DNA of 64,000 nucleotides from an uncultured Acidobacteriota bacterium (lineage in GTDB: Bacteria > Acidobacteriota > UBA6911 > RPQK01 > JAPXNP01). The notes beneath the pieces were generated by a model. It was not told the DNA's origin. It did not search any database and worked only from the letters and a program-made list of their open reading frames with translations. The translations under genes and the position numbers were made by a program. The stretch spans positions 992,001 to 1,056,000 of the forward strand of contig CAVZRV010000007.1 in NCBI GenBank assembly GCA_963777605.1. Reading direction: 5' to 3'. Below, one piece after another: positions 901 through 57,351 of this stretch. Numbering within the stretch: the first letter of the stretch is position 1; the number at the start of each line of letters is the position of its first letter.

Positions 901-918
901 TTGGCGACAGACGTGCAT
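901..918 (+). promoter_or_regulatory. Sigma54 (-24/-12) promoter
   Basis: TTGGCGACAGACGTGCAT has exact GG-N10-GC spacing, and the downstream locus encodes a GAFTGA activator. Confidence 0.6.
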
Positions 919-929
919 TTACTAATGGC

Positions 930-1700
930 GTGAAACAAGGATCAGTTCCAACATGTATTTGGATGGACGCGGGGCTCATCTCCTATCGGCTGTGTGACCG
1001 GAATCTGGATTGTGACAACTGTCTTTTCGACCGGGTGATGAGAGGAAAGACCGAGGGACTGGAGCAATTGATTCAGCCCTCGATGCCAAAGGTGGTTCGC
1101 GGGCCGCGGTTCCTGCCTGGATTCGGGTTTGATCCTCGGTGCTTCTACTCGAGAAATCACTTGTGGTTCCGGGTTGAAGAGAAAGCAAACCTGAAGATCG
1201 GCCTCGATCACTTCGGAAGCCAGCTGTTGGGAGCCATCAGCGCGGTGGAAACGCCTGAAGAAGGCACTGAACTTAACGCCTTCACGCCGATTCGCATTTC
1301 CAACGAACTCGGAGAAGTCGAGTTGGTGTCGCCCGTCTCGGGAAGGGTGGTATGGAACAACCCTGATCCCCGCCGAACTCCTTCTCTGGTCTCCGACGAC
1401 CCCTACGACCGGGGGAGCATGATCACGGTTGAATCCGACGATCTTACCGGAAGCCTCAAAAGCCTCCATTTTGGAAGGTCGGCTGAGGTCTGGCTCCAGC
1501 ACGAGGTCGAACAATTGGCGGGAGACGTGATTGCCTTGGCGTTTAAGGAGCATCCCACCGTCGGAACGACCGCGACGGATGGCGGAGAGGTGATTGCAAA
1601 TTACCTCGCAGTTATTCGGCGACAGGAGAGTTTTCGGACAGTGCTGAAGAGATTCTTCGGGGCAGTCCCCGTTAAAAAGGGTGGCTCAAAATGGTATTAG
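930..1700 (+). CDS. GcvH-like protein with an N-terminal 4-Cys motif and no lipoyl lysine
   Basis: H-protein fold motifs YSRNHLW, IGLDHFG, SPVSGRV..N, DPYDRG; N-terminal CIWM..G..YRLCD..LDCDNCLFD; C-terminal DGG. Confidence 0.8.
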   Translation: MKQGSVPTCIWMDAGLISYRLCDRNLDCDNCLFDRVMRGKTEGLEQLIQPSMPKVVRGPRFLPGFGFDPRCFYSRNHLWFRVEEKANLKIGLDHFGSQLLGAISAVETPEEGTELNAFTPIRISNELGEVELVSPVSGRVVWNNPDPRRTPSLVSDDPYDRGSMITVESDDLTGSLKSLHFGRSAEVWLQHEVEQLAGDVIALAFKEHPTVGTTATDGGEVIANYLAVIRRQESFRTVLKRFFGAVPVKKGGSKWY

Positions 1701-2357
1701 TAATGGTTTTCTTAACCGTAGTCTGTTCTATCGCGACAGTTGAAACCGTTGCCTGGCTCAGGCGGCGACGCGAGCTTCAGGAATCAGCTCAACGGTCCAC
1801 TGAACCTGTGATTGGGGAGGTGTACTGGCATCCGGGCCACGCCTGGCTTCGTGTGCTTTCCAGAGAGCGGGCGGCGATCGGGATCGACGGTTTCGCCCTT
1901 AGACTGCTAGGGAGAGTTGACGAAGTTCGTTTGCCCGAGCCGGGGACCCGGGTCCGCCAGGACGAACCTTTTGCTTCGGTTCGCCAAGGGTCTCGGTGGG
2001 TACGGTTCGCCTCGCCGGTAGACGGAACGATCGACGAAGTTAACCCTCAGGGTGTGAAAGATGGCCGTGACGGAGAAGAACGTTACGAGAAGGGATGGCT
2101 GTGCCGGTTGCAGGCTTCCGACCTGAGAGAGATGCCGGCGGGTTTGATCGGCGCACACGACATCCGTGACTGGATGGCGCGCCAGGTCCAAACCGTGATG
2201 GACTTCTTCGCGCAGAGATCGGCAGGTCCCGCAGCTCCAGCCCATGATTCCCGACGGCGGAACGCTCGTGGACGGCCTTCTGGAGCAGGCCGACGATGAA
2301 ACTTGGGCACAACTGACGCAGCGCCTGTTCGAAGCCTCCTCACGGAAGGAACGTTGA
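1691..2357 (+). CDS. Membrane-anchored GcvH-like protein, no lipoyl lysine; +1 frameshift near 2230
   Basis: N-terminal TM; HPGHAW, IGIDGF, SPVDGTI.EVN, YEKGWL. The family C-terminus (QLQPMIPDGGTLVDGLL...) continues in the next frame after a CCC run and stops at 2357. Confidence 0.75.
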
Positions 2358-2563
2358 AACTTGGGCGCCGGACTCCCGGCGCCTTCTGTCGAAGAAACCA
2401 TCCTTATAGTTGAATAATCCTGCAATACTCGGTCAATATCAGCTTACCGCTGCAACAAAATTCTTTTTGCTTCTGGACGATGGCTTGCTATCTTGTAAGG
2501 TGGTCGGTCCATGGGAGGCCGACGTGTCCCCGCCAGCCTAACCGGGGAAAGAGGTGGTGAGCT

Positions 2564-4201
2564 TTGACTGGGCGTCTGAGTCTTCGACTCATCCTGAGCC
2601 TCATTGCGATTCTCGGGATCATTTTCACGCTGTTTGGATACCTGGTTACCGAGCTGCATCGGCGTGACCTCGAGAGCGTCAATTCCGAAGCTGCCGATCG
2701 CATCAGCGACTCGATCAAGCGCAGCATTCTGTACAGCATGCAGCTTAATCACCGGGAGCATATCTACCAGACCATCAAGACAATAGGCGGTGAACCGGGA
2801 ATCAACAAAGTTCGAATCTTCAACGAGATCGGCAGGATCAGCTTTTCGAGTGATGATGCCGAGATCAATCGGATGGTCGACAAGCGAGAAGAGGCCTGCT
2901 ATGGCTGCCACAACCAGGAGGAGCCCCTGCGGCGGCTGGAGCGACCTGACCGTCACCGGATATTCTACGACGCCCAGGGAAACCGGATCCTTGGGGTCAT
3001 CAATGCGATTGAAAACGAACCGAGCTGCTGGGAAGCGGACTGTCACGCGCACATCCCGGAGCAGGCCATTCTCGGTGTGCTCGATGTGACGGTTTCGCTG
3101 GCACACGTCGACGAAATCACCCGGCGGGGGCGCAACCTGATGCTGATCCAGTTGGGGATCGCGGTTCTGGGGGTGTCGATCCTGCTTGGGATGCTGGTTT
3201 GGAATTTCGTCGATCGCCCAATTCGACAGTTAATGGTTGGGACGGAGAAGATCGCCTCCGGAGACCTGGACTATCGAATTCAGGTCAACACCAGCGACGA
3301 AATGGGATCTCTCAGTGAATCATTCAACCGGATGACCCGCCAACTCGACCAGGCCCGGGCCGAGGTGAACGCATGGACGCAGACCCTCGAGGCGAGGGTG
3401 GAGGAGAAGACAGCAGAACTGAAGCGGGCCCACGATCAGATGATGCAGGTGGAGCGCATGGCGTCGATGGGGAAACTGGCTGCCATCGTGGCCCATGAAA
3501 TCAATAATCCGCTGGCGGGTATTCTGACCTCGACCCGGCTGATTCTGAAGCGGATTGACCGAAAGGCGATCGAACTGAAAGACGACAGCCGGGAGCATCT
3601 CGAAATGATCGCTGACGAGACAAGCCGGTGCGGTTCCATCGTCAAGAACCTGCTGCAGTTTGCGCGGCCCACCAGCAAGAACCGCGAACCCGAAGACATC
3701 AACAACGTAATTCGCGAGTCATTGAGGCTCGTCCAGCACAAGATCAACCTCATGAGCGTGGAAACCCAGTTAGAACTGTCGGATGATGTGCCCCCGGTTG
3801 TCTGTGACGCCCAGGGGATCAAGCAGTCATTGCTCGCGATTCTGATCAATGCGTGCGAAGCGGTCGGAGACTCCGGGGGAGAAATCGAATTAGGGTCGGA
3901 TTTCCTTCCGCAGGAAGACCGGGTTTGTATCTGGGTTCGGGACAACGGTCACGGGATGGACGAACAGACCCGGCAGCGAATTTTCGAGCCCTTTTTTACA
4001 ACGAAAGAAGAAGTACGCGGCGTCGGCCTGGGGATGGCTGTGGTGAGCGGAATCGTTAGCGCTCACGGCGGAACCGTCGACGTGGAATCGGAAATTGGCC
4101 GGGGAACCACGATCAGGATCTACCTTCCCGCACAGGTTCCGGACCAGATTGGGGTGGTCGCCGATGAAGTGCGGGACGAGAGGAGAGAGAGCGACGCATG
4201 A
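2564..4201 (+). CDS. Sensor histidine kinase (periplasmic CxxCH domain, HAMP, HisKA, HATPase)
   Basis: Two TMs; CYGCH; H-box AHEINNPL; N box ILINACEA; DNGHGM; FEPFFTTK; GVGLGM. Confidence 0.93.
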   Translation: MTGRLSLRLILSLIAILGIIFTLFGYLVTELHRRDLESVNSEAADRISDSIKRSILYSMQLNHREHIYQTIKTIGGEPGINKVRIFNEIGRISFSSDDAEINRMVDKREEACYGCHNQEEPLRRLERPDRHRIFYDAQGNRILGVINAIENEPSCWEADCHAHIPEQAILGVLDVTVSLAHVDEITRRGRNLMLIQLGIAVLGVSILLGMLVWNFVDRPIRQLMVGTEKIASGDLDYRIQVNTSDEMGSLSESFNRMTRQLDQARAEVNAWTQTLEARVEEKTAELKRAHDQMMQVERMASMGKLAAIVAHEINNPLAGILTSTRLILKRIDRKAIELKDDSREHLEMIADETSRCGSIVKNLLQFARPTSKNREPEDINNVIRESLRLVQHKINLMSVETQLELSDDVPPVVCDAQGIKQSLLAILINACEAVGDSGGEIELGSDFLPQEDRVCIWVRDNGHGMDEQTRQRIFEPFFTTKEEVRGVGLGMAVVSGIVSAHGGTVDVESEIGRGTTIRIYLPAQVPDQIGVVADEVRDERRESDA

Positions 4202-5565
4202 TAGCCAAGTCCGTTGCACGGGTATTGGTGGTAGACGACGAACTCGCCGTACGCAAGTCACTGGGGGGCTGGCTTCGGGAGGAAGGATACGAGGTCGATG
4301 TCGCCGGCTCTGGGAAGGAGGCCCTCGAGGCGCTCAGTCGAAACGACTGGGATGTCTTCCTGGTAGACATCAAGATGCCCGGGATCGACGGCCTTGAGCT
4401 CCAACGGCGGATCCAGGAGATCCACCCCGATTCCACGATCATCATCATGACGGCCTATGCCTCGGTGGACACAGCCGTCGAGGCGATGAAACAGGGAGCG
4501 TATGACTATGTCGTCAAGCCTTTCGAGCCGGAAGCCCTGGAGAACCTGATTCGGAAGGCGGCCGAACGGAAGCAGCTGCTCGATCAGAACGTTCAACTGC
4601 GGGCGAAGATTGACGAGATGAGTGCCTTCCATGGGATTGTCGGGCAAAGCGGGGTGATTCGCCGGGTGCTCGAGGAGATCAAACTGGTGGCCGAGTCGGA
4701 CACCACGGTCCTGGTTCGGGGGGAAAGCGGAACCGGAAAGGAGCTGGTGGCCCGGGCCATCCATGCGTGCAGTCCGAGAAGGTATTTGCCCATTGTGACG
4801 GTCAGCTGCGGGGCACTTGCGGAAGGAGTCCTGGAGAGCGAATTGTTTGGACACGAAAAGGGTGCGTTTACAGGGGCGCAGTACCGGCGCAAGGGCAAGT
4901 TCGAGATGGCGGACGGAGGGTCCCTGTTCCTCGACGAGGTCGGTGACATCTCCCTCAAGACCCAGGTTGACCTCCTTCGGGTGCTGGAACACAAGGAGGT
5001 TTGCCGGGTTGGGGGGAACAAGATGGTACCCGTCGATTTCCGATTGATCACGGCGACCAACAAGAATCTGGAGAACATGGTGCAGGAGGAAACCTTCCGG
5101 GAGGATCTCTACTATCGCCTGAACGTTTTTGCGATTACACTTCCGCCCCTCCGGGAGCGACGGGACGACATTCCCCTTCTGGTCGATCACTTTCTGCGGA
5201 AGTTTGCCCGCAGCATGAACAAACCTGTGGGGAGTGTTAACAATGAAGCACTCTCCATTCTCTCCTCCTATAACTGGCCCGGGAATATCCGAGAGCTGCA
5301 GAACGCTATCGAGCGCGCGGTCCTGGTGTGCCGGGGCGCTGCCATCGAAGCGGAGCATGTCCCGCTTCTGAAAAATGAGAAGGACCGAACGCTCGATGAC
5401 AAGTCACTCGCATCAATTGAGAAGGACCATATCGAAGCCATTTTGGGCGAGACTGACTGGAACATCTCTCGGAGTGCCAGAGTCCTGGGGATCGACCGGG
5501 TCACCCTTTATAACAAGATTAAGAAATATGGGCTGAAGCGAGAAGATTCAGCCACCAACAACTAA
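4198..5565 (+). CDS. Sigma54-dependent response regulator (NtrC/AtoC family)
   Basis: REC domain (VVDD, D-IKMPG), GESGTGKE, GAFTGA, WPGNIREL, Fis-type HTH. Confidence 0.95.
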   Translation: MIAKSVARVLVVDDELAVRKSLGGWLREEGYEVDVAGSGKEALEALSRNDWDVFLVDIKMPGIDGLELQRRIQEIHPDSTIIIMTAYASVDTAVEAMKQGAYDYVVKPFEPEALENLIRKAAERKQLLDQNVQLRAKIDEMSAFHGIVGQSGVIRRVLEEIKLVAESDTTVLVRGESGTGKELVARAIHACSPRRYLPIVTVSCGALAEGVLESELFGHEKGAFTGAQYRRKGKFEMADGGSLFLDEVGDISLKTQVDLLRVLEHKEVCRVGGNKMVPVDFRLITATNKNLENMVQEETFREDLYYRLNVFAITLPPLRERRDDIPLLVDHFLRKFARSMNKPVGSVNNEALSILSSYNWPGNIRELQNAIERAVLVCRGAAIEAEHVPLLKNEKDRTLDDKSLASIEKDHIEAILGETDWNISRSARVLGIDRVTLYNKIKKYGLKREDSATNN

Positions 5566-6134
5566 TGAATCAAATCCGGCTGGTCGGGGTCGGGAGCCCG
5601 GACGTCGATGTTCTTGAGTTTCTCTCGCTCACCCTTGGTGAGAGTCTCCCTCAGCCTTGCCTGGTGGATGGAGTCCGCTTTGACGTATCGGAGGCCTTCG
5701 AGGTGTCTCGGAGTCAATACTTTTCCACCCGGATCGTTTCGGACCTGCTGAACTACTCCGGCGGATATCCTCGGGCCAAGGTGCTTGGAATTACCGACGT
5801 TGATTTGTTCATTCCGATTCTTACCTTTGTCTTCGGGGAAGCCCAGCTCGGAGGGCCGGTCGGCCTGGTTTCAACCCATCGTTTAAGGCAGGAGTTCTAC
5901 GGTCTTCCTGAAGATCGAGGCATCTTTCTGGAGCGGGTGGAAAAAGAGGCCTTGCACGAGCTTGGGCATACCTTCGGACTGGTCCACTGTCATCGACCCG
6001 GGTGCGTGATGGGCTTCTCGAACGCGGTGGAGAAGGTCGACCTGAAGACAAATACCTATTGTTCCGAGTGTCGGATCACCGCCGGGTTGGAAAAGACCGC
6101 CTCGGAGTTCATCCGAAGCCCGGAAAGCATTTGA
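5565..6134 (+). CDS. Archaemetzincin family Zn metalloprotease (M54)
   Basis: HELGHTFGLVHC...CVM...YCSEC and FVFGEAQLGG; start overlaps the regulator stop codon. Confidence 0.92.
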   Translation: MNQIRLVGVGSPDVDVLEFLSLTLGESLPQPCLVDGVRFDVSEAFEVSRSQYFSTRIVSDLLNYSGGYPRAKVLGITDVDLFIPILTFVFGEAQLGGPVGLVSTHRLRQEFYGLPEDRGIFLERVEKEALHELGHTFGLVHCHRPGCVMGFSNAVEKVDLKTNTYCSECRITAGLEKTASEFIRSPESI

Positions 6135-6141
6135 GGTCCCA

Positions 6142-6520
6142 GCGTGGTACGGCCGTCCCGGCCGTGACCGGGATTTCTTGTCTTCCGCGGAGCACAGGCG
6201 AGAAGCCTGTGACACGGCCGTCCCGGCCGTGACCTTGGAGTTCCTCCGCTGTTCTCCCATGGTCACAGGCGGGAAGCCTGCTGACACGGCCGTCCCGGCC
6301 GTGACCTTGGAGTTCCTCCCCTGTTCTCCCATGGTAACAGGCGAGAAGCCTGTGACACGGCCGTCCCGGCCGTGACCTTGGAGTTCCTCCGCTGTTCTCC
6401 CATGGTCACAGGCGAGAAGCCTGTGACACGGCCGTCCCGGCCGTGACCTTGATTCCAGTCTTCTGTTTTCCGTGGCCACAGGCGAGGACGCCTGTGGCAC
6501 AGCCGTCCCGGATGGGACGG
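6142..6520 (+). repeat. REP/BIME-like array, about 6 units with ~71-bp period
   Basis: Hairpin ACGGCCGTCCCGGCCGT at 6149, 6214, 6286, 6357, 6428 and (degenerate) 6499, alternating with hairpin CACAGGCGAGAAGCCTGTG. Confidence 0.9.
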
Positions 6521-6557
6521 ACGCGTAGATTTTGGAGTGACGAGCGTTATTCCTGGT

Positions 6558-7184
6558 ATGGAGTTCAAACCTCTGTCTTCAGACCAAATCATTCGCCGTT
6601 ACCGCCGGAATCTCCCCCACTGGCGAGCAGCGGGCGCAACCTATTTCATCACCTTTCGGACAGCCGATTCGTTACCCTCAAGCAGGTTGCCCCAGATCGA
6701 GGAGCAACGTCGACTCTGGCTCCAGTTTCATCCCCCTCCGTGGTCGGCCGCAGAATATGCCGAGTTTCAACGGTTTCGATTCCGGACCTTGGACCGGTGG
6801 CTCGATCAGGGATTGGGGGCATGTGCATTGAGGGATCCTCGACTGGCCCGCGAAGTAGAGGAGACGCTTCGATTCTACGACGGCCGACGCTATGTATTGG
6901 ACGAATTCTCGGTCATGCCGAACCACGTTCACGCCCTGGTTCTTCCGATTGAAGCGTGGGAAATCGAGACCATCCTGCAGAGCTGGAAGTCCTTTTCCGC
7001 CCATTCTGTCAACGAGCTCCTCGATCGTTCCGGAACCTTCTGGCTTGACGAAACCTACGATCACATCGTGCGCTCGGTCGAGGAACTGGAGAGGACGCGA
7101 GCGTACATCAGGAACAATCCGAAGAGTGCCCGCCTTTCCGCGGGAACCTACCGAGTCAGCTGCGGCAGTGGGATCGAAACCTGA
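6558..7184 (+). CDS. REP-associated tyrosine transposase (RAYT, Y1 HUH family)
   Basis: RNLPHW...YFITFR, HUH motif MPNHVH, WKSFSA, FW..ETYDHIVR, catalytic YIRNNP; flanked by REP arrays. ORF is open from GTG 6537. Confidence 0.9.
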   Translation: MEFKPLSSDQIIRRYRRNLPHWRAAGATYFITFRTADSLPSSRLPQIEEQRRLWLQFHPPPWSAAEYAEFQRFRFRTLDRWLDQGLGACALRDPRLAREVEETLRFYDGRRYVLDEFSVMPNHVHALVLPIEAWEIETILQSWKSFSAHSVNELLDRSGTFWLDETYDHIVRSVEELERTRAYIRNNPKSARLSAGTYRVSCGSGIET

Positions 7185-7190
7185 TCCATC

Positions 7191-7396
7191 GCGTGGTCAG
7201 GCCGTGACCGGGATTTCTTGTCTTCCGCGGAGCACAGGCGAGACGCCTGTGACACGGCCGTCCCGGCCGTGACCTTGAGTTCCGTCCCCTGTTCTCCCAT
7301 GGCCACAGGCGAGGACGCCTGTGGCACGGCCGTCCCGGCCGTGACCTTGGATTCCTCTTCTGTTTTCCGTGGCCACAGGCGGGACGCCTGTGACAC
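7191..7396 (+). repeat. REP/BIME-like array, about 3 units
   Basis: Same two hairpins and same linker types as 6142-6520, in the same orientation. Confidence 0.9.
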
Positions 7397-7427: not shown

Positions 7428-9470
7428 TTAATCGACAAGGATAATTTGATGGATCTCCAGACGTGGCAGCAGGGCGTGTACGACCCCGTCGGAGTATCGA
7501 AAGGGGAGAGACCCTCCTTCGGGGACAAGGGTCAGGCTGTCCGGCTTTCGAGGGGTACGGATTTCGATCGTAAGCGGGCCGACGGCGGGGATCTCGTCGA
7601 AAACGTTGACCTTTTCGTCGGCGTGGGGGCCGCCGGTGTTGACCAGGTTCAGGGCCAGCTTTCCGTTGACGCGATTCAGGGTGACATCGACGAAGTGGGA
7701 TCCGCGCACCGAGACCACGGGATCGGGAACGAGGCGGCGCACCACATCGGCCAGGAAATCCCGGCTGACTTCGGTACGGCTGTTGACGTAACGCTCTCCC
7801 AGATCGAGGTAAATGCCGGCGATTTTTCCGCCGCCCAGTTGCCGGATCGAAGCGGCCGGAAAGCCTTCGCCGACCGGATCGTTGACGGTTTCCGGATTTC
7901 GATTGAACACGGTGCCAGTCCCCTCTGTCCCCTCTTTGAGGTTGACCTCCTGAAACCGGGACTTGATTCCGGCCATCCGGTCCTGAAAGAAAAGACCGTT
8001 AACGAGATCCTCCGGTTCTCCGACGAAATCGACGCCGAGCTCATCCCGGAAGAGCCCTGTCGCACTCGGTCCGATGACCAGCAGATTTCCTCCGCGGCGG
8101 ACGTACTCGACGAGCTTGTCCCGGAACTCAGGCTCGATGGAGTCCCACTCGGGATAAACAAGAAGCGGGTACTCATCCATACGGCCCTCGAGCTGGTGCT
8201 CCATGACGATGTCTACGACGTTCTGAGACTCCAGCAGGCTCTGCAGGACACCGCGAAGAGGAACAAGTTCCCCGCCCCACGCGGCGAAGAGCTTCCGGTT
8301 GGTCCGGTAGAACGCTTTCCCTGAGTAGATCAAGCCAAGCTGGGGAACGGGGACCGCCCCTTGGCAGACCGACTGGCGCGCCCGGCAGAAACGGGCTACA
8401 TCGGCCATAAGGTCCATTTGCCAGAGCCGAATTGAGCCGTCCCGCTTCTGGGGAAAGTAGGCCTGAAAGCCGCCTCCGAGAGACAGTACCATCGCGGCTT
8501 CCTGCTTGAGTTGTACGGGGGACTTTGTGCTGTAGAGTCCGTCCGCCCAAGTGAAGCTCCAGGCCATCAGATCCCAGGGTTTCCCTTGGTAGACCATGCT
8601 TCTCCCCTCGAGGCGTGCGCTGTTGACACTGTTGCGGGCAGAGAAGTCGCCCGAGATGAAGTCGACCGGAACCGTCACCGGCTCGGGCATCATCGACGTG
8701 TACGCCCAGTTGCTGGCGATCTGAAAATCGGGATCGTGGCGGTGCAGGGTGTCTACGTAGTGCTTGAGGTAGTGCCGGAAGCCGTTCCTGCAGAAGTCGG
8801 AGAATTCAAGCCAGTGAGGCTGATCGGGCTCTTTGGGCACGGACTCGATTCCGGTTTCGCGGTGAAACCGCGCGAGGACGGCGGGCGCGTAATCTCTCTC
8901 CGTGGCCCAGCATTCACCATCCACCCATACGCCATCGACTTGATACTCATCGCGCAACTCCTCGAGCTGGGGGATGAGCAACTTGTCGACGTAAGGTCCG
9001 AAGACCGAAGTGAGTCGATCGTCAGATTTTCCGTCGGGGCCGATCCGGGCCCAATCCGGGTGTTTCTTGACGGCCTGGGCATCCCAGACTCCTGAATGGT
9101 GAACGTAAAGTGCAACGCCGTGACGTGCCGTGACCTCCCTGAAGATCCTTAGCGGGTCCTTCACAAAGCCGGGAGCCTGATTCCCGACCGTGGTGGGGTA
9201 GGAAGAGTAGCCCGGGTGGCCCTTACTGTCGACCTGGATGTAATCGGGATGGACTTTCTCGAGAACCTCTTCCACCATTTCGGGAGTGAGGTTGCGCCCG
9301 ATCTCGACCGAATCCTCTCCGGCATGGAAATCGAAATGAATACCCAGATAGCTCTCCGACCGTCGCAGTCGCTTCGAGGCCGATCCGGTTTGAGCGGCCC
9401 AGACAGCCAAAGTAAGCAGGCTGAGGGCGAATACTCCGGTCAAAATGCCATACCTGGTAAATCTCGCCAC
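7428..9470 (-). CDS. Secreted glycoside hydrolase, alpha-L-fucosidase-like (GH151/GHL6 type) with trimerization-like domain
   Basis: Signal peptide after GTG 9470 (GGGAG RBS); GIHFDFH, QVDSKGHPGYSSYPT, DGVWVDGE. Confidence 0.75.
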   Translation of the reverse strand: MARFTRYGILTGVFALSLLTLAVWAAQTGSASKRLRRSESYLGIHFDFHAGEDSVEIGRNLTPEMVEEVLEKVHPDYIQVDSKGHPGYSSYPTTVGNQAPGFVKDPLRIFREVTARHGVALYVHHSGVWDAQAVKKHPDWARIGPDGKSDDRLTSVFGPYVDKLLIPQLEELRDEYQVDGVWVDGECWATERDYAPAVLARFHRETGIESVPKEPDQPHWLEFSDFCRNGFRHYLKHYVDTLHRHDPDFQIASNWAYTSMMPEPVTVPVDFISGDFSARNSVNSARLEGRSMVYQGKPWDLMAWSFTWADGLYSTKSPVQLKQEAAMVLSLGGGFQAYFPQKRDGSIRLWQMDLMADVARFCRARQSVCQGAVPVPQLGLIYSGKAFYRTNRKLFAAWGGELVPLRGVLQSLLESQNVVDIVMEHQLEGRMDEYPLLVYPEWDSIEPEFRDKLVEYVRRGGNLLVIGPSATGLFRDELGVDFVGEPEDLVNGLFFQDRMAGIKSRFQEVNLKEGTEGTGTVFNRNPETVNDPVGEGFPAASIRQLGGGKIAGIYLDLGERYVNSRTEVSRDFLADVVRRLVPDPVVSVRGSHFVDVTLNRVNGKLALNLVNTGGPHADEKVNVFDEIPAVGPLTIEIRTPRKPDSLTLVPEGGSLPFRYSDGVVHALLPRLEIHQIILVD

Positions 9471-9544
9471 AGGCAACTCCCTGCCTTGTTCGACTGAGTT
9501 GAAGGGAGGCCGGCACCCGACCTCCCTGAGAGCCGTGCCGGCGG

Positions 9545-10906
9545 CTATCTTCGGACGTTCAGCCAAGTCTCGTAGCTGTTCACCTCGACAGGTTCCTGTT
9601 CCTCCTTTGGAACGCCGAGATACTCGGCCACGGACGGAACCAGCTTCGAGTACCAAATGGTCGCGTTTACAGTCACCTTGCCTTCCGGTATCGATTCAGG
9701 CAGGCGGAAAGTGTAGGTTTCGCTGACCGCTTTCAAAGGCGCAAGCCGATAATCGGGCCCGAGTTTTGCGGTGTGCCACTGGGCGATCGTCATGCGGCCT
9801 TCAGGATCAATGTAGGGAAGGCGGAAGATACGGTCTCCCTCGGGAACGCCGCCGTCGCGCAGGAGGCCCTTGAAATCGGCCAGACCCTTGATGTCCCCGA
9901 TATCCTGGTAGGCCAGCGCCGATGCGGATGCAATCGTCAACTCCTCTCCCTCAAAGCCCTTGGCATCGACGGGAAGGTGGTAGACGTTGCCGGCGGAATC
10001 GCGGGCTTCGACGTGGAGCCAGAGCAGGCGCTCCTCCGCGGAACCGCTGGGAACCATGTGCCCGGCCTTCGCGTTGACCACCACCGCGGTTACCTTCACT
10101 TCATCGCCCGGGCCGGCTTCGCGCACGGAGGGATGCGCCCGGACTTCTGCGACGCCGCGCAGTTTTCCGTCGTCATGCGCGCCATGGAAGAGGTGCTGAC
10201 GGACGTTGGGTCTATCCTTGCCCATTCCGGGGGCGCTGTTACCGGCGGCCGGCGGCATGTGGCAATCCTGGCAAACGATCCCGGCCTTGGCATGAGGGCT
10301 CTCTTTCCACTCCAGTTGGGTTGACTTCACCCAAACCCCGTAGGGATCCTTTTCATTGTGGCAGGTGCCGCAGAACTCGGTCGTCCGCAAGAACGGGTTG
10401 TCCTTAATCTTGTGAACCGGACTTTCATCATCCGAGTGAATACCCTGCTTGACGTCGCCCGGGGATATCACATAGTTGAAGTTAAAAGGAACATCCCCTT
10501 TGAACCCGGTGATGCTGTGACAGACTTCGCAGGAGACACTTTCGTTAGCCCGGGTTCCTTCTGCAGGACGGCTCGGCGGGATGTCTCCGGCGAGGAAGGC
10601 CAGCGGCGCATGACAGCCGTTGCAGCCGGCCTTGATTCCTGCCACCTTTTCCAGTTTCAGGCTGTGCGGCAGAGCCAATTCGAAGTACTCGATCTCATCC
10701 CAGGGGTGCGTGAAGCACTGAGACATCATGGCCTGTTCGTGCTGAAAGGTCAGGTCGACGTGGCACGAGGCGCAGGCGTCCGGCTCCTGGAAGCGCTCGT
10801 AGGGAACGGTGCCCATCGCTTCGTCACCGACCTTCTGGGCCCAAATCGGGCCACATAATACCAGAGCGATCGCCGCGGCGGCGGCGTATCTTGCGGATCT
10901 CATCAT
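9545..10906 (-). CDS. Periplasmic pentaheme c-type cytochrome (c554-like domain)
   Basis: Signal peptide and five CxxCH motifs: CASCH, CNGCH, CEVCH, CGTCH, CQDCH. Confidence 0.88.
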   Translation of the reverse strand: MMRSARYAAAAAIALVLCGPIWAQKVGDEAMGTVPYERFQEPDACASCHVDLTFQHEQAMMSQCFTHPWDEIEYFELALPHSLKLEKVAGIKAGCNGCHAPLAFLAGDIPPSRPAEGTRANESVSCEVCHSITGFKGDVPFNFNYVISPGDVKQGIHSDDESPVHKIKDNPFLRTTEFCGTCHNEKDPYGVWVKSTQLEWKESPHAKAGIVCQDCHMPPAAGNSAPGMGKDRPNVRQHLFHGAHDDGKLRGVAEVRAHPSVREAGPGDEVKVTAVVVNAKAGHMVPSGSAEERLLWLHVEARDSAGNVYHLPVDAKGFEGEELTIASASALAYQDIGDIKGLADFKGLLRDGGVPEGDRIFRLPYIDPEGRMTIAQWHTAKLGPDYRLAPLKAVSETYTFRLPESIPEGKVTVNATIWYSKLVPSVAEYLGVPKEEQEPVEVNSYETWLNVRR

Positions 10907-10952: not shown

Positions 10953-13215
10953 CTATTTTGTGGCCCGCCCCAGTTCCTGCGCATCAACCACAGCGATGGC
11001 AGCCATGTTGACAATGTCCTTCGCCTCGAATCCGTGCTGGAGGACATGGACCGGCTTCTTCATCCCGACCAGGATCGGCCCGATCGCTTCGGCACCCCCA
11101 AGGCGCTGAAGCAGCTTGTAAGCGATATTTGCCGACTGAAGGTCGGGGAAGATGAGGACGTTGGCCGATTTGGTCAGGCTACTGAACGAGTAGTGTTTCT
11201 CGATGAGGTCGTGAAATACGGCGGTGTCGGCCTGCATTTCACCGTCGATCATCAGATCAGGCGCCTTCTGCTTGACCAGTCGGGTTGCCTCCCGGACCTT
11301 GTCAACAAGCGGATGGCGGACACTGCCGAAGTTCGAAAAGGAAAGCATGGCGACTCTGGGTTCCACGTTGAAGCGGCGAGCCACTTCGGCCGTCAGAATG
11401 GCGATTTCGGCCAGTTCCGGTGCCGTGGGATCGATGTTGACCGTGGTGTCGGCGAAAAAGTAGGTGTGGTCCTTGAGGACCATCATGAACAGGCCCACGA
11501 CTCGACTGCAGTCTTCCCGGGTCTGGATGATCTGCAGCGCCGGTCGGAGGGTGTCGGGATAATGCTGGCTGATACCGCAGACAAGGGCGTCTGCGTCCCC
11601 CTGCTGGACCATCATTGCGCCGAACACGGTCTTGTTTTTGAGCATGCGCCGGGCATCGGTCAGCGTGACACCCTTTCGTTCACGCAGTTTGAAAAGGGCC
11701 TCGGCATATTGTTCGGCCTTCTCGGGAGGCATCCGGGTCAACAATTTCGATATCGCTGAGCCGCAATTCGTGCTGCAGAATCAGTTCCTGCATTCGGTCA
11801 TTGCGTCCCAGCAGAACGGGCTGGGCGAATTTCTCGTCGACGATGATCTGGCTCGCCCGGAGCACCGTCTCGTGTTCCCCTTCCGGAAAAACCACCCGCT
11901 TGGGGTCTCGGCGCGCCTGGTTGATCATGAGCCGCATGACTTCGCGGGATCTCCCGAGCCGTCGCTCGAGGTCCTCCCGGTATTGTTCGATATCGATCGT
12001 GCGGCGGGCAACGCCGGTTCTCATAGCCGCTTCGGCAACAGCGGCGGATTCGACGATGAGAACGCGATGGTCGAACGGCTTGGGGATCAGGTAGTCCGGG
12101 CCAAAATGAAGCCGCTCAATCCCGTATGCTTTCGTCACCGACTCGGGTACATCCTCGCGGGCCAATGAAGCCAGGGCGTGGGTCGCCGCGAGCTTCATTT
12201 CCTCATTGATCGCGGTTGCCCGTACATCCAGGGCGCCACGGAAAATGAACGGAAATCCGAGGACGTTGTTAACCTGGTTCGGGTAATCGGAACGACCCGT
12301 TGCCATGATGGTGTCGGGTCGTGCCGTCATTGCCTCTTCGTAGGTGATTTCCGGGTCAGGGTTGGCCAGGGCAAAAACGATCGGGCGCTCGTTCATGGTC
12401 CGGAGCATTTCGCCGGTCACGCAGTTCGCGATGGACAACCCGACAAAGACATCCGCCCCCTTCAGGGCTTCTGAAAGCGTTCGGGCGTCGGTGTCGTTGG
12501 CCAGCGCCTCCTTGTACGGGTTCATCCCAACGGTACGACCGCGGAAAACGGTCCCCTTCGAGTCGCAAAGGATCAGGTTCTCGGGGCGAACACCAAGAGA
12601 GATGTAGTACTTGGCACAGGCGATTCCGCTCGCACCCGCTCCATTGAATACCACGCGGACGTCCTCAATCGGTTTGCCCGCAATCTCCAGGGCATTCAAG
12701 AGAGCTGCTCCCGAGATAATGGCGGTCCCGTGCTGATCGTCGTGGAAAACGGGGATAGTGAGGAGTTCCTTCAGGCGTTCTTCAATGCGAAAACATTCCG
12801 GCGCCTTGATGTCTTCCAGGTTAATTCCTCCAAAAGTTGGCTCCAACAGCTGGACGGTCCGGATGATCTCCTCGGGGTCCAGACTGTTGAGCTCGATGTC
12901 GAAGACGTCGATGTCTGCAAATCTCTTGAAGAGAACAGCCTTCCCTTCCATGACCGGCTTCCCTGCAGCCGGACCGATATCCCCCAGCCCGAGCACCGCT
13001 GTTCCGTTGGAAATGACGGCAACCAGGTTGCCCTTGGCGGTATATTCGAATACATCATCGGGGTTTTCGTGGATCTTGAGGCAGGGAACGGCTACTCCCG
13101 GCGTGTACGCCAGAGAGAGGTCCCTCTGTGTTAAACAGGGTTTACTCGCAGTGACTTCAATCTTTCCCTTGCGACCCTCGCTGTGGTATTCGAGGGCTTC
13201 CTTTTCCCTGATCAT
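10953..13215 (-). CDS. maeB: NADP-dependent malic enzyme with PTA domain; frameshift near 11730
   Basis: [37 protein letters not shown]; the PTA domain (DGEMQAD, ANIAYKL) continues in ORF 10953-11744. Confidence 0.9.
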
Positions 13216-13427: not shown

Positions 13428-13808
13428 TCACTCGGCCAAGAAATCAATCACGAACACATCATCGACAACAGGGCCGACCAGCTTGCCAAACGCCTTGTGG
13501 GCCGGGTGAACGAGATATGCATCCCGGTCCTTCTCATTCCTGAAGGTCAGGATGAAGCAGTGGGTGAATCCCTTGTTCAGGTTCTCCGGGCTGATGTTGG
13601 TTCCGGTCTCAAAGGAGACAATCGTGTCAATGCTGTTTTTCAGATTGCCGAATTCATCGACCACCTTGTCGATCTGACTCTGGTCCGTATTCGCCTTGAA
13701 CTTGAACGCAACCACATGGCGCACGGTACCGGCAGACTCCTCGGCCGGAGAAGCAAAGAACGCGATGCTGAACAGCGCAAGCAGAGCGATAGGAATGAAT
13801 CGGTGCAT
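13428..13808 (-). CDS. Dabb family stress-responsive A/B barrel protein with signal peptide
   Basis: RHVVAFKFK...GFTHCFILTF...YLVHPAH...VIDF. Confidence 0.85.
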   Translation of the reverse strand: MHRFIPIALLALFSIAFFASPAEESAGTVRHVVAFKFKANTDQSQIDKVVDEFGNLKNSIDTIVSFETGTNISPENLNKGFTHCFILTFRNEKDRDAYLVHPAHKAFGKLVGPVVDDVFVIDFLAE

Positions 13809-14060
13809 GAAAATCCCCCCAGTTCGAAACTCGGAAAGACGATACACTGAAGCCTTTCCGTCTTCAAGCGACCGAGTCAAACTCTGGCTGCCCTACCGGG
13901 AGCAGTGCTACTGGGCGTCGGTCGGGCTCTCGAGTATCAAGACCTGGTCGTGGTCGAGAACCGGATCGATTATAGCGGTGGGACTTCCGGCAAGTCGGAT
14001 GCCATCGGTGACAGCGTTGACCTGGTCCACCTTCACATCCAGCCTGCGAAAGAACCTGGG

Positions 14061-15972
14061 CTATTCGACGGGTGCGCTCTTACGGGCGTCGAGGTCGCCC
14101 CACCGTTGGTAGAGCGTTTCGAGTTCTTCCTCGAGGCGGTGCCACCTGAAGGTGATCTCAGAGACTGATTCGGCGCGCTCCTGGTAGAGTTCAGCTGAGG
14201 TCATCAGGGCATTCAGACGCTCCCGCTCCCGCTCCAGTTCCTCGATTTTCCCGGGCAGCGCCTCGAGTTCCCGTTCCTCCTTGTAGGACAACTTGGAGGA
14301 AGTCTTCGATGGGACCGCTTTGCGGGCTCGTGCGGATTTCTTCAGGGGATTCGGAGTGGGGGTCGCGTAAACCTGATTGGCACGACGGCCCCGCCAATCA
14401 TCGTAGCCACCCACGTATTCAACCAGGTTCCCGGGGGACTCGAAGACGAGGCAACTGGTGACGGCGTTGTTCAGAAAGGTTCTGTCGTGGCTCACCAGCA
14501 GAAGTGTTCCAGGGTACCCGACGAGCAGTTCTTCGAGCATTTCGAGGGTTTCGACATCGAGATCATTGGTGGGCTCGTCCATGACCAGAACGTTTGCCGG
14601 ACGGGCAAACAGGCGTGCGAGCAGGAGCCGGTTCCTTTCCCCTCCAGACAGGGCCCGTGCCTGCATTCGAGCCCGGTCGGGAGGGAACAGGAAGTCTTCG
14701 AGGTAACCGTAGAGATGCCTGGTCTTGCCACCGGTTGAGATCTGGTGACGGCCGTCAGCGACGTTGTCGGCGACAGTCTTCTCATCATCGATCTGGGAGC
14801 GCATCTGGTCGAAGTAGGATACCTCCAGGCCCGTGCCCAGCTGGACTCTTCCGGAAAGGGGCGGAAGGAGACCGAGCAGGAGCCTGATAAGCGTTGTCTT
14901 TCCAATGCCGTTCGGCCCGACGATACCAATCTTGTCACCCCGGACAAGCGTGGTCGAGAAGTCCCTGACGATCGGAAGATCCTGCCAGGAGAAACTGATG
15001 TTCTCGACGCGGGCCACCAGCTTGCCCGATCGGGCCCCCTCGTCGAGTTGGAGGTTTACGCTGCCGATTTCCTCTCGAAACCTTCGCCGCTCGTCCCGCA
15101 TATCCTCGAGGGCGCGGACCCTCCCTTCGTTGCGGGTGCGTCGGGCTTTGATTCCCTGTCTGATCCAGGCTTCTTCCTGGGCCAGCCTTTTCTCGAAACG
15201 TCTCAGCTCAACCGCTTCAGCGTTCAGAAGGTCTTCCCGCCGGCGCAGGTAGTTCTGGTAATCCCCCGGCCAGTCGGTCAATCGCCCCCGGTCCAGTTCG
15301 AGGATGCGGTTGGCAACGTTCTGCAGGAAGCTCCGATCATGTGTGACAAAGAGGACCGCCCCCTTATATTCGTTGAGATCTTCTTCCAGCCAGGTTATCG
15401 AATCTATGTCGAGGTGATTGGTCGGTTCGTCCAGGAGGAGAATTTCAGGTTCGGTCACTAGCGCCTGGGCAAGCAGCGTCCTTCGCTTGACGCCTCCGGA
15501 GAGCTCATCGAACTGGGAGTCGGCGGGAAGCTTGAGCCTGGAGATAATGGTCTCGACCATCTGTTCGGTTCGCCAGCCGTTGGCCGCTTCCAGCTCGCTC
15601 TGAATTTCGCCAAGGGTCTCGAAGTTTCGCTCCACCGGGGTCAGCCTGGAGCCGGGAACTGGCCGCGTGATAGGCGCGAACGAGGTTGCCGATCGACCCA
15701 AGTCCCTCCGAGACAATCTCAAAAACGGTTCCGGAAACGTCCTCCGGAACCTCTTGGGCAAGACGGGCGATCCGGACCGACTTTTGAACCGACCGCTCTC
15801 CCGCTTCAGCGGCAATTTCCCCCGAGATGATCTTCAATAGAGTGGACTTGCCGGTGCCGTTTCGCCCCAGTAGACAGACTCTTTCCCCCCGATCCAGGGT
15901 CAGGTCCACTTGATCGAGAAGTGGAGGGCCACCAAATGCAAGTTGGATATCTTTCAGACTGATCAGGGGCAT
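14061..15972 (-). CDS. uup: ABC-F family ATPase Uup; frameshift near 15630
   Basis: Two ABC domains (GRNGTGKST / LSGG / LLLDEPTNHLD and GPNGIGKT / LSGGERNR), EEAWIRQGIKARRTRNEGRVR linker, KLSYKEERELE C-terminal domain. Confidence 0.88.
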
Positions 15973-16205
15973 AAGCAACCAGGGAAAGACCGGAGCTCAA
16001 TCGTCAGCTTCGAACGGATGGTCTAAATTTGGTCCCATTACCCAGATTAGCACGGCAATCCCCGCCATCCCTCATTACGCCTCCCTGGAGCGGTCCTTAA
16101 GTCCGAGCCATTCTCGGGGAAGACTTGTGTCCTCCTACCGTCCGCCTGTTGTGGTAGCCTCCAAGCAGGCGGGTCCCCATCAGGAGGGGCCGTCGGAGAT
16201 GGACC

Positions 16206-16523
16206 ATGAAGGCTATCGCAGATATCTGTATCGTTCCGATCGGAGTGGGAGTCAGCCTGTCCAGGTACGTGGCAGCGTGTGAGGAAGTGATCCGGGGAAG
16301 CGGGTTGAAGGTGCAATTGCACGCGTACGGGACCAACGTCGAGGGAGACTGGGATGAGGTCATGGCAGTCCTCAAGCGTTGCCATGAGGTCGTCCATGAA
16401 ATGGGTGCACCGAGGATCACCACGACGGTCAAGGTGGGTACCCGGGTTGATCGGGACCAGTCGATGACGGACAAAATTGAGAGCGTGGAGCAGAAGCTGA
16501 AGGAGGGCAGGGTCTGTGAGTAG
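16206..16523 (+). CDS. MTH1187 family thiamine-binding protein
   Basis: IVPIGVGVSLSRYVA...HAYGTNVEG...GTRVDR. Confidence 0.88.
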   Translation: MKAIADICIVPIGVGVSLSRYVAACEEVIRGSGLKVQLHAYGTNVEGDWDEVMAVLKRCHEVVHEMGAPRITTTVKVGTRVDRDQSMTDKIESVEQKLKEGRVCE

Positions 16524-16559
16524 TCGCGGGCTCCCAAGGGGCTGGACGGGGAGGACGAA

Positions 16560-17483
16560 GTGAGCTGGCAAGTCAGGAAACATACGCTACCTTTCGTTGC
16601 ACTCGTGGTTCTTCTGTTAGCACTGAACTGTCCAACGGCCGTTTTGGTCGCTGCGGATCACCTCGTCAAAGTCAGCTATGAAGCCCGTTCCCTTCAGCCC
16701 GGAGAGCTTGCGGTACTGACGGTAGAAGCTCCGGCCATGATCGAAGGCGGCGTTGCCGACATTTTCGGCAAAAGCTTTCCCCTTTTCAGAGTTTCCGACA
16801 ACAATGTCTATGAGGGACTGGTTGGCCTTGACCTGAACCTGGATCCTGGTACTTACACGTTGAAGGTTCACGGCCGCCTGAAAGGAGAGCCCTTCGAGGT
16901 TTCCGAAGCCCTCACGGTCAAGTCCAAGAAGTTCCCGGTACGCCGGATTACGGTGGACGAGAAATTCGCCAACCCTCCCGCCTTGGTGATGCAGCGGATC
17001 GAGCGGGAGCAGGCACTGGTCAACGGGATTCTCTCGAAGACGACGCCGCGGAGGTACTGGGACGGGACATTTGTCCGGCCGGTCCCCGGAGCGGCATCGA
17101 GCAGCTTCGGGAAACGCAGCATCGTGAATGGACAGGCGCGCAGTCCGCACAGCGGGACGGATTTCAAGGCATCGGCCGGAACTCCGATTCATGCCCCGAA
17201 TGCCGGCAGGATCGCCCTGGCTCAGGACCTCTACTTCGCCGGGAACACGGTGATCATCGACCACGGGCTCGGGCTCTACACCTACTTTGCCCATCTCTCG
17301 AAGTTCGAGGTGAAGCAGGGTGACCAGGTAGAAAAGGGACAGGTTGTCGGGCTGGTCGGTTCCACGGGAAGAGTGACCGGCCCCCATCTGCACTGGACGG
17401 CCCGCCTCGTGGGAGCCAGGATTGACCCCCTCTCCATCCTTGAGCTGCTGGGAGACCCCGGCGCTATCGACTCAGCACGCTGA
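16560..17483 (+). CDS. M23 family metallopeptidase
   Basis: HSGTDF, IIDHG, HLS, STGRVTGPHLHW; signal peptide. Confidence 0.92.
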   Translation: MSWQVRKHTLPFVALVVLLLALNCPTAVLVAADHLVKVSYEARSLQPGELAVLTVEAPAMIEGGVADIFGKSFPLFRVSDNNVYEGLVGLDLNLDPGTYTLKVHGRLKGEPFEVSEALTVKSKKFPVRRITVDEKFANPPALVMQRIEREQALVNGILSKTTPRRYWDGTFVRPVPGAASSSFGKRSIVNGQARSPHSGTDFKASAGTPIHAPNAGRIALAQDLYFAGNTVIIDHGLGLYTYFAHLSKFEVKQGDQVEKGQVVGLVGSTGRVTGPHLHWTARLVGARIDPLSILELLGDPGAIDSAR

Positions 17484-26464: not shown

Positions 26465-26684
26465 GGCTGGTCGGCAACAATGAGGCACGCCACCTTCCGG
26501 GGGACCTTCCAGGTTCCACCGATTGCCTGGTGGGAACGATTCTCTTGACACTGTTGGATTCCCGCGCACACACTGGGCGGGAGAAGAACAGCAAAATGGT
26601 TTCCCTTCCTCGCCGAGAGGCTCGTCCGGGTATTGCCATCAGCCGGCGGCCTTTCATCGGGGTGATCCTGAGGAGGTGACCACC

Positions 26685-29462: not shown

Positions 29463-29497
29463 CGGCCGGGCCAGGAGCCCGCCTGCAGGGACACGGT

Positions 29498-48030: not shown

Positions 48031-48039
48031 GCTCAGCGA

Positions 48040-48072
48040 CAACTACATTTCCCGGGTAGGGAAATGTAGTTG
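48040..48072. repeat. Perfect 14-bp inverted repeat
   Basis: CAACTACATTTCCC-gggta-GGGAAATGTAGTTG. Confidence 0.85.

Positions 48073-56959: not shown

Positions 56960-57351
<392 letters not shown>

Follow-up and report, generated by a model that had tools for sequence, protein, structure and literature searches.

What do two relatives of the glycine cleavage H protein do if neither has the lysine to which lipoate is attached? The question is raised by a cluster of five genes near one end of a 64,000-nucleotide stretch of DNA from an uncultured Acidobacteriota bacterium (contig CAVZRV010000007.1, positions 992,001 to 1,056,000), the whole of which we call the window. The cluster encodes two GcvH-like proteins, H-like 1 and H-like 2, together with a sensor histidine kinase, an NtrC-type sigma-54 activator and an archaemetzincin, a protease of family M54. 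GcvH needs its lipoyl-lysine for glycine cleavage, and the H-protein fold is known as a lipoate carrier. An earlier interpretation made from the DNA letters alone (the sequence-only reading) proposed that the fold had here become a sensor or adaptor working with the kinase. Our own answer, which we favour tentatively, is that the cluster may be an autoregulated sigma-54 redox-signalling module, of which the lipoate-free H paralogues would be the cytoplasmic sensing or relay parts. We favour it because, across the relatives of this locus, the sigma-54 promoter, the H-like protein with four conserved cysteines (4-Cys) and mostly also the kinase, activator and M54 protease stay constant, while the redox module beside them varies.

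Both H-like proteins match the Pfam family GCV_H, H-like 1 with 52.1 bits and H-like 2 with 58.4 bits; against the gcvH equivalog TIGR00527, which has a cutoff of 115.85, they reach 59.6 and 56.8 bits, respectively. They share with GcvH (E. coli 3a7a and 3a8i, pea 1dxm) the fold and the motifs HxW, G-x-D, P-x-x-G and PY-x-GW, and differ from it in the missing lipoyl-lysine, in an added 4-Cys motif or membrane helix, in a C-terminal extension of ~75 residues (helix, loop bearing the residues DGG, helix), and in having no P, T or L partner proteins nearby. HMMER alignment to solved H proteins places Gly128 of H-like 1 at the lipoyl-lysine of E. coli GcvH and Ser101 of H-like 2 at that of the pea protein (ESVKA in both cases), in line with the sequence-only reading, which had noted the loss of the lysine from both. 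The AlphaFold2 model of H-like 1 has a mean predicted local distance difference test score (pLDDT) of 88.3, and more than 95 in the core; all 22 of its Foldseek matches at E≤0.001 are H proteins, the best being 3a8i_E (E 7.5e-10; TM-score on the target 0.89, root-mean-square deviation 1.5 Å). The same search of the PDB library gave no match for the 4-Cys segment or for the C-terminal extension. The latter is modelled as a long helix (residues 182-207), a loop and two short helices, with the stretch 212-219 of the loop (G212-x-T214-x-x-D217-G218-G219) at low model confidence and flexible. Cofactor-less lipoyl-like domains occur in the membrane redox complexes of NqrA and RnfC, and with H-like 1 these two proteins appeared only as non-significant Foldseek matches (E 0.17-0.9).

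The N-terminus of H-like 1 carries the motif C-x12-C-x5-C-x2-C (C9, C22, C28 and C31), which had been claimed from the sequence and proved to be conserved across a whole family. A word-based search with H-like 1 returned three relatives only; a HMMER profile search raised the number to 193 cluster representatives (E≤1e-30), matched over their full length. In an alignment of the best 151 of these 193 with the window protein (152 rows), C9 is present in 140 rows, C22 and C28 in 150 each and C31 in 151, and the 12 gaps in the first of these columns are truncated gene calls. The lipoyl column of the same alignment holds glycine in 97 rows and lysine in 2. The DGG is likewise conserved (D217 in 140, G218 in 147, G219 in 142) as part of a near-invariant G-x-T-L-x-DGG motif. 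Counted over the 151 relatives, the full N-terminal motif C-x-W-[MVA]-x-[AST]-G-x3-[YF]-x2-C-x5-C-x2-C occurs in 123 and DGG in 135. Searching the Atlas with the whole protein led only to clusters named 'hypothetical' or 'GcvH family', and its N-terminal 62 residues alone brought no useful match (best score 0.77). Small sites of four cysteines hold the Fe-S sensors of WhiB and FNR; the cysteine spacing of H-like 1 (x12, x5, x2) differs from theirs, and the likeness is a lead only.

H-like 2 begins with a membrane helix followed by RRRR. This anchor, too, had been claimed, and it recurs in the family: 56 of 61 members have an N-terminal hydrophobic helix and then K/R, an arrangement that predicts a cytoplasmic H domain for the anchored paralogue. 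DGG is found in 56 of 58 members, and the lipoyl column is G, E, N or D in the 59 aligned rows, so that the idea of a lysine-free H fold survives the comparison in both families. At three Desulfobacterota loci with cytoplasmic partners of the heterodisulfide reductase (Hdr) type, the anchored paralogue is soluble, without a membrane helix. The two families are homologous over 190 profile columns, the DGG extension included (hhalign E 1.1e-46). On a quick tree built from 125 H-like cores, 4 changes suffice to explain the 4-Cys label, compared to 42 in shuffles, which indicates two lineages; both window proteins group with Acidobacteriota relatives, and an acidobacterial origin of the window is accordingly probable. 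By sequence comparison the two H-like proteins are thus ancient paralogues that share a GcvH core and a helix/DGG-loop/helix C-terminal extension. A complex prediction for the intact H-like pair of one relative, L003, took 245 residues together with residues 30-216 of the anchored paralogue and an alignment for each; its score of 0.00 and mark of 0.32 speak neither for nor against binding. In some relatives (P0056, P0115 and the H-like protein of locus L069) we observed two tandem cysteine motifs (C-x12/13-C-x5-C-x2-C-P) or two tandem anchored-type H domains; the tandem copies of the motif suggest that the cysteine segment behaves as a separable module.

A direct connection between the H module and a kinase is provided by P0078, a family representative of 505 residues that consists of the cysteine motif, GCV_H (81-191), the DGG loop (225) with its helices, HisKA (269-336) and HATPase_c (383-493). 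Its identity with H-like 1 is 32% over residues 9-230 (E 1e-35), and with the core of the window kinase 27%; its predicted domain order shows a complete 4-Cys H module where the input domain of a kinase would be. A word-based search for longer fused forms returned none, which is weak evidence. The proposal that the H fold serves as sensor or adaptor for the kinase thus gains one independent support from P0078; it is also incomplete, since the H-like genes appear to be sigma-54 outputs as well and a role as redox partner fits too.

The evidence for sigma-54 control comes from the activator and from the sites ahead of the H-like genes. The activator has Response_reg (1.5e-32), Sigma54_activat (2.4e-68), AAA_lid_14 and HTH_8 (3e-14) domains in Pfam, with GAFTGA at residue 221 of its AAA+ domain. 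Together with its HAMP-HisKA-HATPase kinase, this receiver-AAA+-HTH_8 protein resembles NtrC-family pairs such as AtoSC and ZraSR; unlike these, it scores below the cutoffs of all named NCBIfam equivalogs (AtoC and ZraR among them), is accompanied by H-fold proteins as accessories, and has a protease gene as an integral part of its operon. A sigma-54 -24/-12 promoter-like element lies directly ahead of H-like 1 and is kept in position in the related loci L001-L003 (TGG-N-[AG]CC-N-GACGTGC); in all four, a conserved GTG or ATG start follows 12-14 nucleotides past the GC of the -12 part. Window-wide, a loose sigma-54 pattern is not enriched (13 found, 8 expected), and the support for the element accordingly comes from its position and from the relatives. 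Across the loci of the survey described below, we searched from -200 to +120 for TGGCAC-N5-TTGCA with GG and GC fixed and at least 9 of 11 positions matched. Such sites precede 32 of 81 operon-first H-like genes, at 30 of 70 loci and in all major phyla sampled, where 1.96 were expected from the site density over all 2.05 Mb of strand sequence (binomial P 2e-30, a value that the kinship of the loci inflates). They are also found at loci without a kinase within 8 kb (L057-L059, L062, L070 and L071). The H-like genes thus appear to be at least outputs of the activator.

To survey the neighbourhoods, species-representative genomes were scanned with the pattern C[IVL]WMDAG[LVI][VI], which yielded 76 loci; owing to the Asp in the pattern, these sample about a third of the 4-Cys family. 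They belong to Bacteroidota (29), Ignavibacteria (13), Acidobacteriota (11, one of them Aminicenantes), Planctomycetota (4), 13 metagenome-assembled genomes (MAGs) labelled 'delta proteobacterium' plus Desulfacinum hydrothermale, and 5 others. The five window proteins served as queries against the six-frame open reading frames (ORFs) of every locus, which were also clustered all-against-all. For counts of gene presence we used the 45 loci in which the sequence reaches 3.5 kb or more upstream and 5 kb or more downstream of the 4-Cys gene; the other 31 were left out for short flanks or, in 5 cases, because the regular expression missed the cysteine motif. With orthologue thresholds of E<1e-90 for the kinase and E<1e-130 for the activator, the kinase is present at 31 of the 45 loci, the activator at 35, M54 at 32 and a second H-like protein at 38. 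All five genes occur together at 26 of the 45 loci, in at least six phyla, and the objection that the genes do not co-occur, which the sequence-only reading had raised against itself, therefore fails; an arrangement that recurs across phyla in this way is beyond chance.

Two further genes commonly stand between or beside the two H-like genes, bringing the full set to seven at 22 of the 45 loci. One encodes a Fer4_11 protein with four iron-sulfur clusters (~260 amino acids; 45 of 76 loci, 27 of the 45 well-flanked ones) and the other an NrfD-family membrane protein (~400 amino acids; 53 of 76, and 29 of the 45). No further gene family is common to more than 10 of the 76 loci, and neither P, T and L proteins nor a lipoate ligase are among the families conserved across them. 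The usual order in Bacteroidota and Ignavibacteria is anchored H, iron-sulfur protein, NrfD, 4-Cys H, kinase, activator, M54, and in Pyrinomonadaceae it is 4-Cys H, anchored H, iron-sulfur protein, NrfD-c7 fusion, kinase, activator, M54. The iron-sulfur subunit matches HmcB best (256-268 bits, cutoff 420) and the membrane protein HmcC (342-344 bits, cutoff 550), which places the pair closest to HmcB/HybA and HmcC/HybB, below the equivalog cutoffs. As a putative iron-sulfur/quinone module it resembles the quinone-interacting HmcBC, HybAB and NrfCD in joining Fer4_11 to NrfD, and differs from them in having no catalytic, cytochrome or HmcF-like partner, save for the c7-type triheme tail in Pyrinomonadaceae; most of the iron-sulfur subunits have no Tat signal or signal peptide. 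Both genes are absent from the window and from L001-L004 and, independently, from L043 and L061, and in all of these the kinase-activator-M54 block still adjoins the 4-Cys gene. A tblastn search of the window with 16 HmcBC/NrfCD-like representatives gave no match, and its ORF domain scan found no Hdr-like genes. What stays constant is the sigma-54 promoter and the 4-Cys H-like protein, accompanied as a rule by the paralogue and, in most lineages, by the kinase, activator and M54 protease. Two loci, L018 (labelled Chromatiales) and L027 (labelled Synechococcus), have the seven-gene layout of the Bacteroidota/Ignavibacteria type, and their H-like proteins nest among Bacteroidota and Ignavibacteriota rows, which suggests binning errors or transfer.

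The kinase consists of a first transmembrane segment, a periplasmic single-Cache domain, a second transmembrane segment and then HAMP, HisKA and HATPase_c, the last three matched in Pfam. Its sensor domain contains C112-x2-C115-H116 (CXXCH) and C155-x4-C160-H161 (CX4CH), both invariant in 49 orthologues, and the AlphaFold2 model (pLDDT 83.2) has the single-Cache fold with CXXCH on a short inserted helix (112-115). The closest Foldseek matches of the domain are extracellular Cache domains of WalK/YycG, from 1.2e-9 (9a5d_A) to 1e-5, followed more weakly by the heme-c sensor GSU0935 (3b42_A, E 1.6e-4). Heme-c Cache domains (DUF3365/Tll0287) are defined by a CXXCH insertion, located between strands 3 and 4, in a 2026 preprint (PMC12889525); in the window kinase the insertion comes after model strand 2. 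The kinase is thus like the heme-c Cache sensors (sCache_heme, GSU0582/GSU0935) in its periplasmic single-Cache domain with CXXCH on a short inserted helix, and unlike sCache_heme/DUF3365 in having no DUF3365 Pfam match at E≤0.1 and in having a second invariant motif, CX4CH. The sequence-only reading had called the kinase heme-type; the two invariant motifs and the Cache fold make a heme-c binding domain plausible, as a prediction from motifs, and stop short of membership in the DUF3365 family.

The protease is recognized by Peptidase_M54 (PF07998, 1.4e-27) and by the NCBIfam model archmetzin (NF033823; 154.4 bits, cutoff 145), and scores 89.7 against a cutoff of 250 with the model for the non-proteolytic Myxococcus variant. 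It has the complete motif HEXXHXXGXXHCX4CXMX17CXXC (HELGHTFGLVHCHRPGCVM...CSEC), as do 43 of 46 M54 homologues from the neighbourhoods. AmzA and AMZ-tk are described archaemetzincins (PMC3427221, PMC4681839), and the extended motif is given as HEXXHXXGXXHCX4CXM...CXXC (PMC3427221). The window protease is like these in having the full motif and in exceeding the family cutoff, and unlike them in gene context: coupled in translation to a sigma-54 response regulator, its gene is conserved in bacteria next to those of the H-like proteins. As it has no signal peptide, it is predicted to share the compartment of the H domains. All 26 adequately flanked loci with M54 have an H-like protein bearing DGG, and three planctomycete loci that keep kinase and activator (L029, L034 and L038) are without M54 and also without the C-terminal DGG loop; at the level of sequence, the association between M54 and the loop is suggestive. 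Structures of archaemetzincins have been solved and, to our knowledge, none has a known physiological substrate; the role of the protease in the cluster is unproven.

The five genes are co-oriented (Table 1), as the sequence-only reading had it, and the overlapping start and stop codons that it described are borne out by overlaps of 10 nucleotides between the H-like genes, 4 between kinase and activator and 1 between activator and protease. Its start of the cluster at position 901 was not retained: it is out of frame with the H-like 1 ORF, and the GTG used here is kept in four relatives. The claim that DGG lies near both C-termini holds for H-like 1; in H-like 2 the DGG tail is out of frame and would need read-through. 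The frame of H-like 2 is broken near 2215-2230; the last residues of the protein as read are junk, and the C-terminus that it shares with its homologues (PDGGTLVDGLLE...SSRKER) lies in another frame. Intact homologues at L001-L003 read straight through, which points to a one-base indel in the window. Between H-like 2 and the kinase there is a gap of 206 nucleotides with a hairpin directly 3' of the read-through stop, followed by 180 nucleotides to the TTG of the kinase. From its place after the H-like pair and ahead of the kinase operon, the hairpin could act as an attenuator or a terminator; a clear T-run is lacking, and the terminator scan did not call it.

Table 1. The gene cluster and its associated elements, numbered from the first nucleotide of the window.
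Feature	Position	Strand	Details
Sigma-54 -24/-12 promoter-like element TGGCGACAGACGTGCA	902-917	+	13 nt upstream of H-like 1 GTG
H-like 1	930-1700	+	256 aa, GTG start
H-like 2	1691-2299 as read; to 2357 with read-through	+	202 aa as read
G+C-rich hairpin, 9 bp	2363-2384	+	RNA fold -21.9 kcal/mol, z -2.74
Sensor histidine kinase	2564-4201	+	545 aa, TTG start
NtrC-type sigma-54 activator	4198-5565	+	455 aa
Archaemetzincin (M54)	5565-6134	+	189 aa

Seen as a redox-signalling module, the cluster would work as follows. The 4-Cys site would bind an Fe-S cluster or some other metal or thiol centre with redox activity, the state of which would mirror the electron flow through the associated iron-sulfur module; in most phyla this module would be of the HmcBC/NrfCD type and in Desulfobacterota of the Hdr or formate dehydrogenase type, and in the source genome it would be absent or encoded elsewhere. 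The state of the site would be passed to the kinase/activator pair, which would switch on the H-like genes and, in the relatives, the genes of the redox module too. The archaemetzincin might trim or remove the H-like proteins, with the exposed G-x-T-L-x-DGG loop as the likeliest site, and this processing would serve to set or reset the signal. Accessory sensor proteins are known from three-component systems, and PspA-PspF is a case of feedback; the present cluster is similar in that small proteins with a possible effect back on signalling are encoded in the operon that the activator itself targets. We can also speculate on a more specific scheme, which we consider improbable in its entirety: the H-like proteins would be the physiological substrates, long sought, of a bacterial archaemetzincin that cuts them at the DGG loop, so as to release an inhibitory C-terminal helix pair or to free the anchored paralogue from the membrane, and the 4-Cys H module would be an Fe-S redox sensor of a new class that reports HmcBC- or Hdr-like electron flow to the sigma-54 two-component switch.

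Several observations weigh against a signalling role. Metal binding, control of phosphotransfer and proteolysis are all predicted from motifs and gene context, and the kinase fusion is one of 151 family representatives and an unverified metagenome gene call. The promoter-like element of the window matches only 8 of the 11 consensus positions, below the threshold of 9 used in the survey; that it would give a near-leaderless, GTG-initiated mRNA is uncertain, and a search of the DNA ahead of H-like 1 in the window and in L001-L003 revealed no enhancer-like inverted repeat common to them. At 10 or 11 adequately flanked loci an H-like protein bearing DGG has no M54 gene within reach, and as the three loci without DGG and M54 are all from Planctomycetota, they would count as one or two independent events. 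The window copy of H-like 2 is frameshifted. Lastly, at loci of the L057 and L069 type an H-like gene heads an operon of large redox enzymes, which fits a carrier or enzyme subunit equally well or better.

This last point leads to the strongest of the other explanations, which we hold to be somewhat unlikely: that the H-like proteins are structural or electron- or sulfur-carrying subunits of membrane or cytoplasmic iron-sulfur oxidoreductases, a lipoate-free counterpart of LbpA with a 4-Cys Fe-S or dithiol centre in place of the lipoyl arm, and that the regulators are merely adjacent. The Fer4_11 and NrfD genes that flank the H-like genes at so many loci would then encode their partners, and from this position between or beside the H-like genes a role as redox partner fits as well as sensing does. 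In Desulfobacterota the partners would be of other kinds. L026 has FrhB-, HdrA-, HdrC- and HdrB-like genes, three H-like genes, activator, PAS kinase and M54; at L069 (Desulfacinum hydrothermale DSM 13146, the sole cultured host among the loci) we find kinases, activator, M54, the H-like gene with two cysteine motifs, a receiver protein, an HdrA-like protein of 1377 amino acids, MvhD and FdhA. The last, at 15324-16747 of that locus, is a formate-dehydrogenase-like molybdopterin subunit with an in-frame TGA, whose context (CARL*HSP) looks typical of selenocysteine. L057-type loci have the 4-Cys H-like gene alone, followed by a 1290-amino-acid 2Fe2S/flavin/molybdopterin fusion. Hdr-like genes are confined to Desulfobacterota, where five or six loci have them. 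In the enzyme operons headed by an H-like gene, sigma-54 sites lie ahead of it, and the anchored paralogue carries its helix at loci with a membrane-bound partner and is soluble at those with a cytoplasmic one.

There is also a precedent: LbpA of the sHdr system is GcvH-like, is genetically tied to heterodisulfide-reductase-like enzymes, is lipoylated on a conserved lysine and has dedicated lipoate ligases (PMC6067878; PMC10332631), and this lipoylated protein is a working partner of Hdr-like complexes (PMC6067878). In Desulfobacterota, some relatives of the window proteins are like LbpA in adjoining HdrA/B/C-like genes; unlike LbpA, the H-like proteins have no lysine and no ligase among their conserved neighbours, and the window has no Hdr genes. 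A carrier would not be expected to be fused to a kinase, as in P0078, nor to persist with kinase, activator and M54 where no enzyme genes are in reach, as in the window, L001-L004, L043 and L061. Moreover, HmcB and HybA are periplasmic, and as most iron-sulfur subunits of the relatives have no signal peptide, it is in doubt whether they share a compartment with the H domains. A role in signalling and one as carrier are not exclusive; the loci without a redox module and the P0078 fusion favour signalling, while the L057 and L069 operons favour the carrier.

We regard two other explanations as distinctly improbable, to about the same degree. One sees in the H-like proteins maturation or protection factors that the two-component system induces, for instance to deliver Fe-S clusters or metals or to respond to stress, and that take part in neither signalling nor electron carriage. 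The sigma-54 sites ahead of their genes, the conserved cysteine-rich site and the proximity to unrelated Fe-S-rich enzymes (HmcBC-like, Hdr-like and formate-dehydrogenase-like) would all suit such factors; yet the H-like proteins matched no known maturation family in Pfam, NCBIfam, Foldseek or the Atlas, and the pairing of paralogues, the membrane anchor and the kinase fusion would be left unexplained. The other is that the system is decaying in the source genome, having lost its redox module and retained H-like 2 as a pseudogene, and that the window copy has ceased to work in the way of its relatives. The frameshift and the absence of HmcBC/NrfCD-like genes from the window are what decay would predict. 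However, the four closest loci, L001-L004, share the layout without redox genes, and three of them have an intact H-like 2; the other four genes of the cluster are undamaged and their motifs complete. The gene for a MaeB-type malic enzyme (10953-13215, -) is split by another frameshift of the window into two overlapping ORFs in the middle of the PTA_PTB domain (profile positions 3-75 in one, 74-319 in the other), which suggests assembly indels and makes an assembly error likelier than decay for H-like 2 as well.

That these are ordinary lipoylated H proteins of glycine cleavage or another lipoate pathway, or ones with a shifted site, is extremely improbable: they do exceed the Pfam cutoff for GCV_H, their relatives bear no public name other than 'glycine cleavage system H (lipoate-binding) protein' or 'hypothetical protein', and 15 of 59 anchored-type relatives have a lysine one position past the lipoyl column, but neither window protein has a lysine at or next to the lipoyl position, the 4-Cys family has almost none there, the gcvH equivalog scores are about half the cutoff, and partner genes and lipoate ligase are missing from the conserved families as well as from the window. 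For the latter, a scan of 59 ORFs found no P, T or L protein and no GCV_T, GDC-P or lipoate-ligase domain, in agreement with the earlier statement that gcvP, gcvT and a lipoate ligase are absent. Canonical glycine cleavage is excluded for the window proteins by the loss of the lysine, the low gcvH scores and the lack of partner genes nearby.

The surroundings of the cluster contain several other features. A 42-codon ORF with a single hydrophobic helix (MTYSLIIGIVIVAAVIVWIF...) and AGGAGG ahead of it (366-491, -) sits in the long intergenic region upstream. Downstream, a gene resembling REP-associated tyrosine transposases (Y1_Tnp, 6537-7184) is flanked by units of 71-72 nucleotides with a GC-rich hairpin, six at 6144-6519 and three at 7225-7396, the whole spanning 6144-7396; the 'terminator' called at 6155-6174 after the protease gene is the first hairpin of this array. 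On the opposite strand, 3.4 kb downstream of the cluster, are adjoining genes for a 742-residue protein with a weak GHL6 glycosyl-hydrolase-like match (7428-9656, -) and a 453-residue multiheme cytochrome with MtrC/MtrF-like and c7-like matches (9545-10906, -). Another and good sigma-54-type match (TGGCATCCGACTTGC, 13990-14004, -) lies ~180 nucleotides upstream of a small secreted-protein gene (~13428-13808, -), whose product, judged by eye, we take to be stress-responsive A/B-barrel (Dabb)-like; no link between this site and the cluster was found. A sulfate-assimilation block (23643-31402, +) encodes a PAPS_reduct-domain protein, a fusion of a GTPase with an APS kinase, and an ABC transporter of the sulfate type with a Usp domain in its ATPase. 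The region 47394-58611 is probably an integrated mobile element: it opens with a phage-integrase fragment (47394-47933), continues with ~10 kb of ORFs without Pfam matches and includes an HNH-domain protein (56901-58049), and its G+C content at 56-58 kb is 0.43, compared to ~0.59 elsewhere in the window. PADLOC reported no defence system, only a generic AAA+ likeness of the activator to RtcR models.

In the literature we found no description of Lys-less, Cys-rich H-like proteins, in a search of papers available without subscription, and none of an archaemetzincin beside a sigma-54 two-component system, among the matches listed in a search of titles and abstract openings. The function of the cluster thus appears to be undescribed, and the 4-Cys family is large and unnamed. 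Its automatic annotation as GcvH, despite the missing lysine, amounts to a systematic mis-annotation that inflates predictions of glycine cleavage in MAGs of Acidobacteriota, Bacteroidota, Ignavibacteriota, Planctomycetota and Desulfobacterota. For the archaemetzincins, a gene locked to a fixed set of partners offers a short list of candidate substrates; if the scheme in which the H-like proteins are cut at the DGG loop were true, it would represent a new kind of proteolysis-gated redox signalling by the H fold, present in at least six phyla. The link to HmcBC/NrfCD-, Hdr- and formate-dehydrogenase-like modules under sigma-54 control suggests a so far unstudied layer of regulation or electron transfer in anaerobic and microaerobic respiration, mostly in uncultured lineages.

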